Positions 20,308 to 26,394 of a stretch of 64,000 nucleotides of DNA are shown piece by piece. The stretch is from Albugo candida (Eukaryota). The translations under genes and the position numbers were made by a program. The stretch lies in contig JBDOQK010000029.1 of assembly GCA_040437565.1 (NCBI GenBank), forward strand, positions 248,001 to 312,000. The letters are read 5' to 3'. A model generated the notes under the pieces. It did not search any database, was not told the origin of the DNA, and was given only the letters and a program-made list of their open reading frames with translations. Numbering within the stretch: the first letter of the stretch is position 1; each line of letters begins with the position of its first letter.

Positions 20308-21489
20308 TTTACAGCAAATGAGACCGAGTATAGAACTCTTATCAACCTCACAACTTTGACACGCTTCTACAATCCTATCAGTCTACAGCTATAGATCAAA
20401 TTTTCAAAACTGAGCTATTACGTATGCTACCACGTGCTATACACAATTCGTATTGATACTAATCACTCGAGATCACGTCAACTCACAGTATCTTTGTCGA
20501 ACGCTCTGTCTACAATGAGCTTTACTCGACCACAATCCTACGGTATACATCGCTTCGTTATTTGTTCGATATTTTTCAAGACGTACTGTGTGTATGTATG
20601 CGGACAAACATATATCAAATGCACTTAGAATCTTGGAAGCAATCCACCAATTTGAAGTCGACAGCATAAGTTTGTTATCTCGTGCTCGTATTTGGTCGTG
20701 ACAATGGGGAGGAAAAATCTTAATGTCATATCTGATGTGAGGATTCGTAGCATAGAAATCCAAGTCTAGTACACAGTTGAAGCTTCATCTCATCAATCAC
20801 TGACCTTCGTAAAATGAAAATTCAGGATCGGATATGTCGAAGCCAGCAAAACATCATGGTTTACGTATCCGATACGATGGACGCTAGCAATTATCTGCTA
20901 CTCAACTCGGCCTTACTTTCGTCAGTGGTTTTGCGCTGGATACTCTCGCAGTCAATGTGGGAAGCAGGTGCTACTTTTATTTTCGACAAACTTTTTCGCG
21001 TAACAAAACGTCGTAATTGAATTTTCACGAAAGTCATCAGCTATAGCGAGAGTCATGCGAGCATTTTGTTGCCAGGACTTATTACATCGAGAGATTGCTG
21101 TAACCTATGACGTCCAAACAGTAGAAATAGATAACATCAACATTAAAATTTTAAGCGAGAAGCTCACCATAGCTTACGCATCGACTTCCATGCGTCAAAG
21201 ATGGTCAAGTTCATGCATTCCATCGTTTGAGTAACATGCTGTCCGATTCATCGTTGAATTGATGTCTATTACTCTAGCATTTTTGCACGAGTCTCGACGG
21301 TAATCGCAAATGAAGCAATAGATATATCGATACTTTGAGGCTCTGTAGATGGATCGCGAAGGTAACTCGCAGGCTGTTAGAGCTTAGATTTACAGATGTT
21401 TCAGCAGAGATTTACACTTAAGCAGAGTGCGAAAAATATTCTTCCATTCGATTCTTCATCAGCTGATAATTATCGTTACTAACTATCGA

Positions 21490-23944
21490 ATGTTACAATC
21501 AAAGCAATCTTTAATGACGACCTCGACATGCGCACAAGATCGAATACAAGTAGAAGACAATGAGAATATGGATAATTCCGACGCACACACTGCGACCACG
21601 AGTATGTTAAATGACTTCACACAAACCATTGCTCAGGAAGTCGATCATGCAACCTCCAAATGGCTCAAGCTTTTCTCGTCCACTTTTCTTGGCACCAGCT
21701 CTGTTGCTGCAAATGATGAAACCTCTCAGCCATCCTTAAACAGTCGAAATTCGATTTCTGGTAGTAAAAGACACGAAACAATGCAAACATATAAAATTGC
21801 ATTGGTTGGAGGTCCGGCTGTGGTATGAAGAATGATCTAGCTCGTTTTAATCGAACTAATAAAAAGCTTCAAGGGGAAAACAAGTATTGTGAGGCGATGG
21901 AGGCAACAAGCTTATCCCACAAAGTATCGGAAAACTATTGGAATCGATATCAGCTCAAAGATATATCAATTGAGGAATGGGCAATCGGTTCAATTGATGT
22001 TCTGGGATATCTCCAGTGCTGAAGTGGAAGAAAATAAGTTCTCGGCATTGCATTCGCTAATTTGCGATCAGTTGGATGGTGTCTTTTTCGTAGTCAACAT
22101 CGAACGTCTTAATTCGATAGCGGCAATTGATAGATGGCGAAATGCTCTGTCGAAATATATCTCTGCAATAGAGATTCCTTTTTACTTGCTTTGTCACAAA
22201 GCAGATCTTATTCACAACAGAGTCATGTCGACGGAGGATATCGCTGTGTACGCAAAGGTAGGCGTAAAAATGACAAGGTGTCTGGTTTAAATTGTGCTCA
22301 CAGGTGGCCGGGTATCGAGGCTGGCTATGGACTGTAGGATGTCGCAGTTTTGGCGAAAACGATCGACACCCTGCGGTCTTGGAAGCACTCGAATCGATGG
22401 TAGAAGACGTATATACCAATCGGAAAAATTCACGAGCAAAAGAAATTGTATGCGACCGAAAAAATACTGAAGCGCGTTCCACTAATATAGAATGCGAATT
22501 CTGTAGAGTTGTCTATTTGGAAGTACCGGATCGCTGTCATTGCCTGAGGTGATTCACGTGGATGAGACCTTGAACTTTTTTTCTTCATCGCTTGTGAAAA
22601 ATGCAACGAAAGCTATCACCACAGCAGCACGAGACGGGAAAGAATACTTGGATGAGAAGAGGGATTCAAGCAGTCAAGAAGTACCAAGTTTGGGTAGCAA
22701 CTGGATGCTGGGATGCGAGAAAGAAATGTACTGGCGTCCAACCAGCGACAGCGTTCTCACTCGTTACGGCTCGGACGACGATGAGTCGATAGATTCCAAC
22801 GATTACTCATTTCCATTCGCGAATCTGGAAAGCATCAGTGTGGATCCAAACGACCATAATTTGCCTCATCCAGAGGATCGAATTTCCAAAGAGCCGACTG
22901 ATAAAATCCCGGGACCGAGAACGTCGGCTTCCGGCTCACCACAAGTCGTGATACCTGAGCTGACCGAAGATGCAGCATGGCAATTCTTTGGTGGAAATAT
23001 CAGTCGCCAGCAAGCCGAAAACATATTACAGTAAGCGATTGAGGAAATTCCCGATGTTCGCTTACCAATTTACGATAGCGGGCACGAGAATGGAACTTTC
23101 TTGCTACGTCGTAAAGACGAAAGAACGCTTGTATTGTCGTATTTGGAAGGCTATGAAACTCACCACGCGCTGATTGAGTACTCTAAGAAGCAGTATCACA
23201 TCGGATCGTCCAAGGTATTGTGTCGACTATAAAGCGGAAATCTGCTAATTTTGTATCAAGTAGAGTTCTCAGTTATCGTTTGAGACTTTGGCCAAGTGCA
23301 TCCGAAGCGTACGAAAATATGCGTATCGAGGTCTACTTTTCTCGAAATGCTCAGGCGCCCATAAGAGCGTTCAAGAGTATCGAGTACTGTCCAAAGTGCA
23401 TGCTAATAATGGAACCAAAACAATCTCCGAGGGCAATCTAAAATGGCAACTCAGTGAAGCCGATGATGCCCATGTTGGGAGGAGGAAGGTGATATTCTCA
23501 AATTCAGAGCAGTCGATACTTCAAATCAGACAAGAAAGCATCGATACTCCTTCTCAGCAAAGTATTTCCGATCTGTGTGATGACTACTATGATCGACTGC
23601 AATGTCGTCTAGAAGGCTTGCGATTGCGAGGTCGGAAAATGTCTGCATTTGTTGCACTGCTGATAGTATTCGATGATAGACACCAGGCTTAAAGATATGT
23701 ACGACAATGCCTGCCTTGTGGAACAATGCAGAAATGAGAGATTAGAATTCAAGCGGCTTGATTTCAGCGAAAATAGCTCATTACAGTGGCGAACATTCAT
23801 CAAGAATATGGATACGTGGAACCGAATCATTCTCAATTTCGTAAGCTTTCTCACATGACAAAATTTGCTTGCTAATGAAATGTCATGCAGGAAGAACTCG
23901 ATGAGATGGATGAAAGTGACGAAATAGAGTCAGAAATCTCGTGA
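21490..23944 (+). CDS. Rab-like small GTPase domain + SH2 domain + C-terminal helical region (multi-exon)
   Basis: Spliced G1 KIALVGGPAV|GKTS, G2 KTIGID, degenerate G3 FWDISSAE, G4 CHKAD. Later WQFFGGNISRQQAENILH|GHENGTFLLRRKDERTLVLSY...HHALI...SFETLAKCI (SH2). Stop TGA at 23942-23944. Confidence 0.8.
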
Positions 23945-24053
23945 GCCCTTTCGATTCGCTTCCTGACGCAGAATTTTTTCATCCCGAAAATTGTGACATG
24001 TCAAAAACGGAGCGCTGTACTTATAAACTCACTCTATTATTGCCACAGATTTT

Positions 24054-26394
24054 TCATTCTTGACGTGATGTGTTCCTCCGCTTTTTCACCCGTCGTTTGT
24101 ACACCGCGATCGTGTCATCGACTCGAATTCCCCATTGAAGGTGATCGGCTTTGACTGCAGCGCTTAAGAATCGATTCAATTTCTCAGCTCGTTCCCCAAT
24201 TGTTTTCTGAGAGAAATTTCCAATGATTTGACGATGAGGAATTTGTGGAATATTCTTCTTCTTGACGCCAGCTTCTTTATGCAGCCGATCGCATAGATTT
24301 CGGAATGTGCTGTAGCGCTTCCAGCAATATACTGTGCCATAGTTGTTTGTGTTTATCTCCAATTTGTATTGAATAAACTTTTTGCCCTTTTGAGTGATCA
24401 CGCGGCTGTCAGTAATTCGAACCGAAACAATGCCAATTTCTTCCGGAACTAGTGAAACAATGAATCAGTGATGAGAGAGGATTGGGTAATAGACAACGTA
24501 CCGGGTAATTGCTCATCAACAATCACAGTCTCACGCTCTTCTCGAGCAGGTACAATGACATCTCTGATCTGCACAAAGGCCAAAACATGATCCTCCTCGA
24601 TGATAGTTTCAGATTCTGTGTGGACGGCATAGCAACCGACATGAGGGTCCAGCCCAATGATTTCACCAAAGCCAAAAGGAGTGTTGACTCGAGTTCGTGG
24701 TGATAGAATACGGTCATCATCCAACTCGATGGCGCTACTGGGTACGGTCAACACCTCCTCTGAAGGTACTTCCGTCAAATGTACATCGTACATGTCCGTG
24801 TCTTTGTCATATTTGATCACACGCCCACGACCGTATCCGTGGACAAGAACGGGAACATCCAAACTATATGACTGATCGTAATTTTCCATTCTTTCAAACC
24901 GAAGTTGGTCTAGACGAGCTCTCTCAGCTTCATCTTCAGTGACCATCTGTTGCTGTTCCTGATAACATAGTTGCCTCTCTTGCTCAATGAACGTGACTGT
25001 TTCATATTCTTCATTAGCCATGAGNNNNNNNNNNNNNNNNNNNNNNNNNNNNNNNNNNNNNNNNNNNNNNNNNNNNNNNNNNNNNNNNNNNNNNNNNNNN
25101 NNNNNNNNNNNNNNNNNNNNNNNNGTACATGTCCGTGTCTTTGTCATATTTGATCACACGCCCACGACCGTATCCGTGGACAAGAACGGGAACATCCAAA
25201 CTATATGACTGATCGTAATTTTCCATTCTTTCAAACCGAAGTTGGTCTAGACGAGCTCTCTCAGCTTCATCTTCAGTGACCATCTGTTGCTGTTCCTGAT
25301 AACATAGTTGCCTCTCTTGCTCAATGAACGTGACTGTTTCATATTCTTCATTAGCCATGAGCGCGATCTCGGTCTCTTGTAGCAGACGTTCCTCCTCTTC
25401 TTGAAGTAATAGTTGGAATCTCCGCTGTTCTTCTTCTTCGTCTTGCATTTTCTCTTGCTCTTCCACTTGGAGCCTGAGTGACTTCACGTCGTTCTGATTC
25501 AAGTCAAATTCATCGTCACCTCCTTTTCCATTCTTTTGAAGATCTTCGGTATCTAACCCGTCAGCAGAGAGGCTGTCTTCATCGGTTTCTCTGTAAGAAA
25601 AAAGCTCATTTAGCACATCAAGCGACATCATTCTCAGGCCGTATTGCTTACATGGAAAAAGTTTCTTTCTCATGTGCCTCCGAATCACTTATTCTATAAG
25701 TATGCTCTTCAAAGGATTCTTGTACGATCGTAACTTTCTCCATTGTGATTCTTTTCTCAACCGTAATCGTAGTTTCGATTCCCCCTTCAACCACCACTTC
25801 CTCTTTGATCGTCCTCTCTTCATTTCTCCTCATTTCCTCTATCAGTCTCTTCTCTGTGACTATCTTCTCCTCTTCAATTCGTGCGGCTTCGGCGATCCGC
25901 TCCTTTTCAATTCTTGCGGCTTCAGCAATCCGCTCCTCTTCGATTCTTGCGGCTTCGGCTTGTTCTCTTCGTATTCGTTTAGTTTCCTGCACACGAGCTT
26001 CATATTCTTCATGATGACGTTCTGCTTCCATTCTTTCTCGTTCCGACAGTTCTGCTAGCCATTCCTGATGCTTCTTTTTCGCATCCGTCTTGGCGAGCTG
26101 AACCGTATACCCAATCCCATACTTTTTAATCAGCTGACGCACTGCAAAAGCACGCCCAACACTTTGTATTTTGACGGCTGTCTCGTGCACAAAACGCATT
26201 GTCTTTGGACGATGCAGATACCAGTACTTGACTGCTGCTTTCGATGACATTATCGTCTCCAAATCAAGCGGTCGAAGCTGGGTCTCATCCGTCTGAATGG
26301 ATCGATGCGTAGCTTCATCGCGACTGAGAGCTTCATGATCGGTCAGAATCGTTGATTCACGACCATCTTTCGGTGTCCAGTACGAAGAATACAT
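24054..26394 (-). CDS. IQ-motif / coiled-coil / C-terminal PX-domain protein (multi-exon, spans a gap with a 237-bp overlap duplicate)
   Basis: AVKIQSVGRAFAVRQ (IQ), E/R-rich helix with AEAARIEEE repeats, and PX motifs YKLEI...KRYSTFRNL...IPQIP...ERAEKLNRFL. Confidence 0.8.

Follow-up and report, generated by a model that had tools for sequence, protein, structure and literature searches.

A 64,000-nucleotide (nt) stretch of Albugo candida DNA (assembly GCA_040437565.1, contig JBDOQK010000029.1, positions 248,001 to 312,000 of the forward strand; "the window", counted from its first letter) contains at 21490-23944 one spliced gene, in which a small-GTPase (G) domain and an SH2 domain are carried by one multidomain protein of 700 amino acids (aa). 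The G domain resembles Rab32 and has lost both the Gly and the catalytic Gln of its third nucleotide-binding motif (G3), and the SH2 domain keeps the residues of a phosphotyrosine pocket. The joint reading that we favor, with a probability of roughly 0.55, is that the protein is a nucleotide-bound, poorly hydrolyzing Rab-like module that would be recruited via phosphotyrosine; it draws on sequence comparison and on structural models. SH2 domains are rare outside animals and amoebozoans. The present one is among the few oomycete SH2 domains and is fused to a Rab-like domain without catalytic residues, with both halves equally conserved from Saprolegnia to Albugo.

Eight exons on the forward strand, once joined, give a single open frame of 2103 nt (Table 1). 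All seven introns are of the GT..AG type and short (51, 46, 59, 48, 49, 49, and 50 nt, in order), and in most of them a CTAAT-like stretch can be seen by eye a few bases 5' of the acceptor. For the sixth intron, 23 in-frame donor/acceptor pairs were listed, and the read evidence fixes the pair given in Table 1. The linker and the beginning of the SH2 domain lie together within exon 4, a single open exon of 524 nt. A preliminary description of this locus, written from the sequence alone, had proposed that GT-AG splicing joins a Rab-like G domain to an SH2 domain and had quoted the motifs GGPAVGKTS, TIG, WDISSAE, HKAD, ISR, FLLR, and HH; the joined frame is open, and all of these motifs are found in the spliced product. 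It had also remarked that the open reading frame (ORF) track splits the gene. Indeed, a library of 1.84 billion proteins holds this species' copy solely as ORF fragments, one of which (P0038) has 156 exact residues in common with exon 4. The start codon may alternatively be the second in-frame ATG, at 21514, which is where the Albugo laibachii orthologue AlNc14C249G9619 (P0001) begins.

To follow the splicing in reads, four public runs, none of which is recorded as RNA, were compared over the interval 21300-24100. In run X1, a single 4768-nt contig without mismatches (depth 25.6) extends from 21474, 16 nt before the ATG, to beyond 24100, and this contig omits exactly the seven predicted introns, with all seven joints in frame. 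Since all seven introns are absent from the contig, X1 is probably RNA. The contigs of runs X7 and X8 represent the unspliced form and differ from the window by 18 bases and one 1-nt deletion. The preliminary description had predicted one transcript across 22257-22560 and 23030-23264, and the single spliced X1 contig does span both regions; because it continues past 24100 into a convergent neighboring gene, it is not proof of a single end-to-end molecule. Ten of the differences from the X7/X8 strain are coding, six of them synonymous and four nonsynonymous (V21I, L83S, V181A, and I210T), which are small numbers, and none of the ten changes the SH2 domain.

The identity of the G domain is supported by profile, sequence, and fold searches. 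Exon 2 alone scores 58 bits against Pfam Ras (PF00071; cut-off 21.6) and 46.8 bits against Roc, in agreement with the earlier assignment to a Rab-like G domain and with the Ras/Roc scan proposed for this exon. The best sequence matches of solved structure are Rab32 (62.5 bits, E 2.6e-16), Rab29/7L1 (51.3 bits), Plasmodium falciparum Rab11 (51.2 bits), and Rab38 (49.9 bits); among the 60 best, 59 are Rab or Ypt proteins, and the remaining row is named only "Thorarchaeota Rab". When the first model of the orthologue P0001 was searched with Foldseek, Rab32 (4cym_A) came out on top (E 7.9e-12, TMt 0.80), with Ras, MRas, and Ral close behind. A ROCO (Roc-COR) protein was considered, with Roc scores of 46.8-53 bits, and rejected, as no COR family appeared in the Pfam scans of the window exons and of P0001.

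Pairing a family sequence with Rab32 by HMMER locates what has been kept and what has changed (Rab32 first): GELGVGKTS/GGPAVGKSS at the P-loop, ATIGVDF/KTIGIEI at switch I, WDIAGQE/WDISSAE at G3, NKCD/HKAD at G4, and GWFETSA/GWLWTVG before and at G5. G1 is retained, as are the Thr of switch I, the Asp of G3, and Lys and Asp at G4. Measured against the WDIAGQE of Rab32, both the G3 Gly and the catalytic Gln are lost, just as the preliminary description had it, and the same loss is seen in all 26 oomycete sequences that cover the site: the Gly position is occupied by Ser in 25 and by Phe in one, and the Gln position by Ala, Met, Gly, Ser, or Val. In Ras-like GTPases, the amide of the DxxG Gly touches the gamma-phosphate, and the Gln positions the attacking water. 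The stretch after G3, which is switch II in Rabs, aligns poorly to Rab32, with a 4-residue gap. Rab-specific RabF motifs lie in and after switch II; judged by eye rather than by formal RabF scoring, the IGID and W-D parts resemble RabF1/F2. A C-terminal prenylation motif (CC, CXC, CCXX, or CAAX), whose absence had been noted before, is found in none of 27 oomycete sequences, and the window protein ends in SEIS. Because there is neither a prenylation motif nor a G3 Gly or Gln, this is, as judged by its motifs, not a bona fide Rab.

The SH2 domain is divided among exons, and exon 5 alone (45 aa) reaches 18 bits against Pfam SH2 (PF00017; E 0.003), under the cut-off of 21 bits because the fragment covers less than two thirds of the domain. 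In P0001, whose SH2 domain is 87% identical to that of the window protein, the score is 30.4 bits over residues 434-504. A first full-length model of P0001, built from a 17-sequence alignment, had a mean predicted local distance difference test score (pLDDT) of 50, with 50-70 in the SH2 region; its SH2 elements come in the correct order (alphaA, betaB, betaC, betaD, alphaB), and a fold search with the full-length model returned G-domain matches only. The fold was therefore examined on a model of the oomycete orthologue P0040, an N-truncated protein comprising linker, SH2 domain, and tail, with a 46-sequence alignment; its SH2 domain is 61% identical to that of the window protein.

In the P0040 model, pLDDT is 90-95 over residues ~195-295, which are the SH2 domain. 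All 50 top Foldseek matches in the PDB are SH2 domains, with SOCS2 first (E 5.1e-6) and a TMt of 0.71 for the p120RasGAP N-SH2 and the PLC-gamma1 C-terminal SH2. A search independent of Foldseek (VIA) placed SOCS4 first (Z 10.1, root-mean-square deviation [rmsd] 3.0 Å over 99 residues), followed by the RasGAP N-SH2 (Z 9.9, 2.1 Å over 92 residues) and by Csk, CED-2/Crk, Grb10, and others, within Z 8-10.1 and rmsd 2.0-3.0 Å. Sequence-only (phmmer) matches in the PDB are weak (best E 0.012), with SH2 domains making up nine of the 11 at E ≤ 1. The pocket residues are nearly invariant in the family sequences, the alphaA Arg being present in 45 of 45, the betaB5 Arg in 45 of 46, and the betaD His in 45 of 46. 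The preliminary description had claimed an intact SH2 domain with the phosphotyrosine-pocket Arg, Arg, and His, and had staked this on the region 22970-23320; the motifs are present in the window, and the corresponding region of the orthologue folds as an SH2 domain. By profile, modeled fold, and pocket residues, this is a bona fide SH2 domain, for which phosphotyrosine binding is a prediction. A separate 792-aa ENA protein matching the query SH2 (P0092) has six SH2 repeats and scores 182 bits against Pfam SH2.

A search with exon 4 identified P0001 (685 aa), which is 63% identical over the linker and scores 68.6 bits against Pfam Ras (cut-off 21.6) at residues 95-235. Aligned with the window protein, it is identical in 494 of 706 columns, and no gap falls at any exon junction. 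The G and SH2 domains are each 87% identical to those of P0001, the linker 60%, and the tail 72%, as befits an Albugo-like oomycete other than A. laibachii. Taking the Albugo, Phytophthora, and Saprolegnia orthologues in turn, identity falls from 87 to 59 and 53% in the G domain, from 87 to 64 and 53% in the SH2 domain, and from 60 to 32 and 22% in the linker. Between Albugo and Saprolegnia, linkers are down to 18-22%, while the G and SH2 domains are each at 53%. Going by these identities, the two domains are about equally conserved, and this is a stronger argument for selection than the strain differences described above.

The fusion also occurs in other genomes. Of 34 proteins retrieved with P0001 as query, 24 carry precomputed Ras and SH2 families; these come from Albugo, Pythium, Phytophthora (many species), Plasmopara, Bremia, Peronospora, Hyaloperonospora, Peronosclerospora, Saprolegnia, Achlya, Aphanomyces, and Thraustotheca, together with three entries without an organism. 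Their source names are "hypothetical" or "SH2 domain-containing protein", and one Plasmopara entry is called "putative SH2 domain, small GTPase...". An exhaustive search gave 5023 matches at E ≤ 0.001, of which the majority are ordinary small GTPases and 16 reach E ≤ 1e-30. Beyond the oomycetes, the xanthophyte Tribonema minus has a relative (P0156) that UniRef names "SH2 domain-containing"; it scores 22.2 bits for Ras and does not reach Pfam SH2 at E 0.001, yet its SH2 motifs align. The architecture search across stramenopiles that had been suggested at the outset thus finds the fusion across oomycetes, with a Tribonema relative whose SH2 is below threshold. Four proteins join an amino-acid transporter domain (PF01490) to this protein or to part of it, namely P0021, P0027, P0031, and P0033 (1161, 960, 1144, and 559 aa; from Phytophthora cactorum, Thraustotheca clavata, P. 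fragariaefolia, and P. nicotianae, respectively). They are probably merged models of neighboring genes, which would hint at a conserved neighbor in other oomycetes.

A further set of relatives consists of short proteins (326-394 aa), all from metagenomic or Logan assemblies, that have a G domain, a short linker, and an SH2 domain only; long linker and helical tail are both missing. Pfam scans detect Ras together with SH2 in six of eight (P0048, P0050, P0058, P0094, P0132, and P0133) and Ras only in P0059 and P0072, although the SH2 motifs of these two still align. A 662-aa protein, P0052, also has Ras and SH2. P0193-P0201 are further short forms. In the 16 short forms tabulated, G4 reads NKAD in 13 and HKAD in three, and none has the catalytic Gln. 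The relatives and the oomycete proteins have in common the motifs GG..VGK[ST]S, [HN]KAD, DW..TVG..FGDYD, and W.[FY][FA]G.I.R..[AS]E. The DxxG Gly is retained in Tribonema and in three short forms, and the catalytic Gln in no member of the family. As far as these alignments go, absence of the Gln is family-wide, and loss of the Gly is limited to the oomycetes and most of the short metagenomic forms. The short family suggests that the fusion is older than the oomycetes. No short-form locus was found in two scans of prokaryote genome contigs (P0094 and P0059) and two scans of metagenome contigs (P0094 and P0184), and these scans give no support to a bacterial (Legionella-like) origin. An Atlas search with the short forms returned generic small-GTPase clusters only, at 0.84, and a profile search returned 11 close clusters.

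How might such a protein work? The G domain would still bind guanine nucleotide, as it keeps Lys and Ser/Thr in the P-loop, Thr in switch I, Asp at G3, and Lys and Asp at G4. Replacement of the DxxG Gly and of the catalytic Gln would prevent canonical GTP hydrolysis and the canonical switch-II flip, so that the domain would act not as a fast switch but as an interaction surface that stays loaded with nucleotide for long. Nucleotide binding despite the absence of these two G3 residues has a precedent in the RGK GTPases (Gem/Rad). With both pocket Arg residues and the His kept, which is the ground for this step, the SH2 domain would read phosphotyrosine and bring the Rab-like module to a phosphorylated partner. 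Since there is no prenyl anchor, placement in the cell may come from the SH2 domain, the N-terminal helix, and the helical bundle. The Tyr mark, in turn, would be written by the abundant tyrosine-kinase-like (TKL) or dual-specificity kinases of oomycetes. For Phytophthora infestans, passages of PMC3019232 list 139 TKL kinases along with two putative tyrosine kinases; plausible SH2 proteins number only four there, and PTB domains are absent. A passage on Dictyostelium has a TKL kinase phosphorylating STAT tyrosines (PMC4758236).

Several points weigh against this reading. Nucleotide binding, hydrolysis, and phosphotyrosine binding are predictions for every family member, the SH2 fold is that of a modeled orthologue rather than of the window protein, and treating run X1 as RNA is a guess. 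The G4 Asn is replaced by His, and G5 reads TVG rather than SAK, so that nucleotide binding could be altered. Rab GTPase-activating proteins (GAPs) of the TBC type supply a Gln in trans, and loss of the Gln in cis is hence by itself no proof of a dead enzyme. Likeness to Rab proteins (Rab32) is the sole ground for a presumed trafficking role. Of the preliminary description, the splicing, the two domains, and the residue pattern are supported, and the hydrolysis-impaired or pseudo-GTPase adaptor that it placed between tyrosine phosphorylation and trafficking is a prediction. Finally, according to the passages cited from PMC3019232, Hyaloperonospora arabidopsidis lacks orthologues of both putative Phytophthora tyrosine kinases; H. 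brassicae keeps the present protein despite that, and those two kinases therefore cannot be obligatory writers of the mark.

The alternative that survives best, possible though on balance improbable in our estimate, is that the G domain switches on and off in the ordinary way and cycles like a Rab, with a GAP (TBC dual-finger or Rap-type) supplying the missing residues in trans and the SH2 domain only targeting it. Trans-supplied Gln has the TBC precedent just mentioned, the nucleotide-contacting positions are all kept apart from the G3 Gly and Gln and the G4 Asn, and the ancestor may have switched normally, since Tribonema and three short forms keep the DxxG. However, the DxxG Gly, which in Ras couples switch II to the gamma-phosphate, is missing from all 26 oomycete sequences, and the region after G3 with its alignment gap is unlike Rab32.

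A second alternative, which we regard as unlikely, keeps the fusion and changes the ligand: the SH2 domain would read phosphoserine, phosphothreonine, or an unphosphorylated partner in the manner of Spt6, in organisms where dedicated tyrosine kinases are nearly absent. The tyrosine kinase counts of PMC3019232, only two putative ones in Phytophthora and none in H. arabidopsidis, speak for this, and so does the binding of phosphothreonine and phosphoserine by the Spt6 SH2 domains (PMC5599234). On the other hand, the pocket trio is present in at least 45 of 46 family sequences, and TKL kinases can write phosphotyrosine for SH2 readers, as the Dictyostelium passage of PMC4758236 states. Moreover, the nearest folds are those of phosphotyrosine-binding domains (SOCS2/4/6, p120RasGAP, Vav, and SHP2) and not that of Spt6.

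The SOCS matches also raise a third idea, that the protein serves a cullin ligase as a substrate receptor of the SOCS or Rab40 kind and that its C-terminal helices form an adaptor site similar to a SOCS box. SOCS2, SOCS4, SOCS1, and SOCS6 are the best structural matches of the SH2 domain, helices do follow it, and Rab40, a Rab with a SOCS box, offers a precedent. We nevertheless consider this very improbable: Pfam SOCS_box was not matched in P0040 at E ≤ 10 or in P0001 at E ≤ 0.1, and the helices, of 21-25 residues each, lie ~90 residues past the SH2 domain and match generic three-helix bundles only. Least credible of all is an annotation or assembly artefact that wrongly joined neighboring GTPase and SH2 genes. 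In its favor, a contig across two genes shows no single transcript, and the X1 contig does run into the convergent gene downstream; against it, the open exon 4 holds linker and SH2 start together, all seven joints are in frame, the linker has conserved islands, and the same fusion occurs in independent models from more than ten named oomycete genera.

Comparison with known systems helps to place the favored reading of a phosphotyrosine-recruited, nucleotide-bound Rab-like module. Like Rab32, Rab38, and Rab29 (Rab7L1), the window protein has the P-loop, the switch-I TIG, WDI at G3, and G(F/Y)xGW before G5. Unlike them, it lacks the Gly and Gln at G3, reads HKAD at G4 and TVG at G5, differs in switch II, has no prenyl Cys, and carries ~420 further residues including the SH2 domain. 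With SOCS2/4/6, the p120RasGAP N-SH2, Vav, and SHP2 it shares the fold (Foldseek E 5e-6 to 1e-4), the alphaA Arg, the FLxR Arg, and the betaD His, whereas the sequence likeness is weak and there is no SOCS box, GAP, guanine nucleotide exchange factor (GEF), or phosphatase domain. RGK (Gem/Rad/Rem) and other atypical or pseudo-GTPases likewise combine absence of the DxxG Gly and the catalytic Gln with kept nucleotide-binding residues; they belong to a different subfamily, and none is among the 60 best solved sequence matches.

Animal RIN1-3 combine an SH2 domain with a Vps9 Rab5-GEF, and Rab40 combines a Rab with a SOCS box. In both cases, as here, a Rab is coupled to a module that reads phosphotyrosine or belongs to the SOCS family, but the present protein unites the reader and the Rab-like domain in a single chain and has neither a GEF nor a SOCS box, and the homology is at the level of single domains only. 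By analogy, then, the nearest working parallel would be an SH2 adaptor with a Rab-like output, as in the RIN proteins and Rab40. The auto-annotated oomycete orthologues (P0001 and the Phytophthora entries) have the same architecture and are 35-70% identical overall, and none has a functional name.

A literature search, whose scope did not extend to the SH2 surveys of Liu et al. 2011 (Sci Signal) and Liu and Nash 2012, returned no description of a GTPase-SH2 protein. Because orthologues had already been deposited and automatically annotated with both domains, the family is an uncharacterized one, not an unseen one. It is single and well delimited, with members in important pathogens of crops and fish, of which some can be manipulated genetically. 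As such, it offers a handle on two questions: whether oomycetes signal through phosphotyrosine at all, and what writes the mark, and how an unprenylated small GTPase that probably does not cycle is used. A bolder proposal, which we put forward tentatively and consider doubtful, is that oomycetes, perhaps stramenopiles in general, have a phosphotyrosine pathway of their own, in which receptor-like TKL kinases would write the mark and this protein would read it. Docked by its SH2 domain, it would display a Rab32-like surface, permanently loaded with nucleotide, and thereby draw Rab effectors to the phosphorylated site. If true, the protein would compress into one chain a route that in animals leads from receptor tyrosine kinase via SH2 adaptor and GEF to Rab. 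It would also be a core signaling node of crop pathogens, given that obligate biotrophs whose kinomes are reduced (Albugo, Hyaloperonospora, Bremia, and Peronospora) have retained it.

Outside the two domains, the protein is less uniform. The conserved N-terminal segment (Table 1) is predicted to be helical (helix 12-59 of the P0001 model, at low pLDDT) and is moderately amphipathic, with a hydrophobic moment of 0.46-0.52, and it is a candidate membrane- or partner-binding helix. The linker contains islands conserved in the 17-orthologue alignment (KAITT, W..G..K..Y, and an acidic run), and a second disordered stretch separates the SH2 domain from the C-terminal helices. These helices form a bundle of ~80 residues whose structural matches have Z values that are uninformative for helical folds. 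The helical tail without prenylation motif that the preliminary description had drawn appears in the orthologue model as three well-predicted helices (Table 1).

Table 1. Features of the GTPase-SH2 locus in window coordinates (aa, residues of the window protein)
Feature	Position	Strand	Remark
Whole coding region	21490..23944	+	frame, and X1 contig from 21474 with 7 introns skipped
Exons 1-4	21490-21822; 21874-22257; 22304-22447; 22507-23030	+	open frame after joining
Exons 5-8	23079-23214; 23264-23630; 23680-23840; 23891-23944	+	stop codon 23942-23944
Introns 1-6	21823-21873; 22258-22303; 22448-22506; 23031-23078; 23215-23263; 23631-23679	+	GT..AG
N-terminal segment of SKW.K..SSTFLG type, aa 53-68	21646..21693	+	conserved across 17 orthologues
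Rab32-like G domain, aa 100-276	21787..22414	+	split by introns 21823-21873 and 22258-22303; Pfam Ras, Rab32 match
G1 / P-loop GGPAVGKTS	21808..21885	+	intron 1 inside motif; G, K, and S/T conserved in family
Switch-I TIG (KTIG)	21931-21942	+	conserved in family
Atypical G3 WDISSAE	22003..22023	+	Asp kept; DxxG Gly to Ser, catalytic Gln to Ala
G4 variant HKAD (canonical NKxD)	22195..22206	+	invariant in oomycete sequences
G5-position WTVG (Rab32: ETSA)	22328..22339	+	T, V, and G nearly invariant family-wide
Low-complexity acidic/Ser linker	22415..22977	+	contains intron 22448-22506; pLDDT < 50 in both models
SH2 domain, aa 445-533	22978..23341	+	across introns 23031-23078 and 23215-23263; Pfam and orthologue fold
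SH2 pocket motifs	ISR within 22978-23007; FLLRR 23092-23118; HH 23158-23178	+	window protein
Antiparallel three-helix bundle	23540..23840	+	contains intron 23631-23679; helices pLDDT 83-94 in P0040 model
Acidic C-terminal tail and stop	23891..23944	+	no Cys, no prenylation motif

Some further observations concern the surroundings of the gene. The ~90 bases directly upstream of the transcript start (21357-21445) hold six of the 18 base differences from the X7/X8 strain, as well as the 1-nt deletion (21359). Run X4 gave short, low-depth pieces only, and an apparent joint between opposite strands at 21775/21807 in exon 1, seen in one of its contigs (depth 3.6), is most likely an assembly artefact. 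The assembly is a gapped draft with a G+C content of 43%, and the window includes 19 runs of exactly 100 N (e.g., 2306-2405 and 25025-25124), which are scaffold gaps. Downstream, the convergent ORF at 24057-24464 on the reverse strand encodes a PX (phosphoinositide-binding) domain (Pfam PX 39.5 bits, E 8.6e-10). As the X1 contig enters this gene, the 3' ends of the GTPase-SH2 and PX genes probably overlap or abut.

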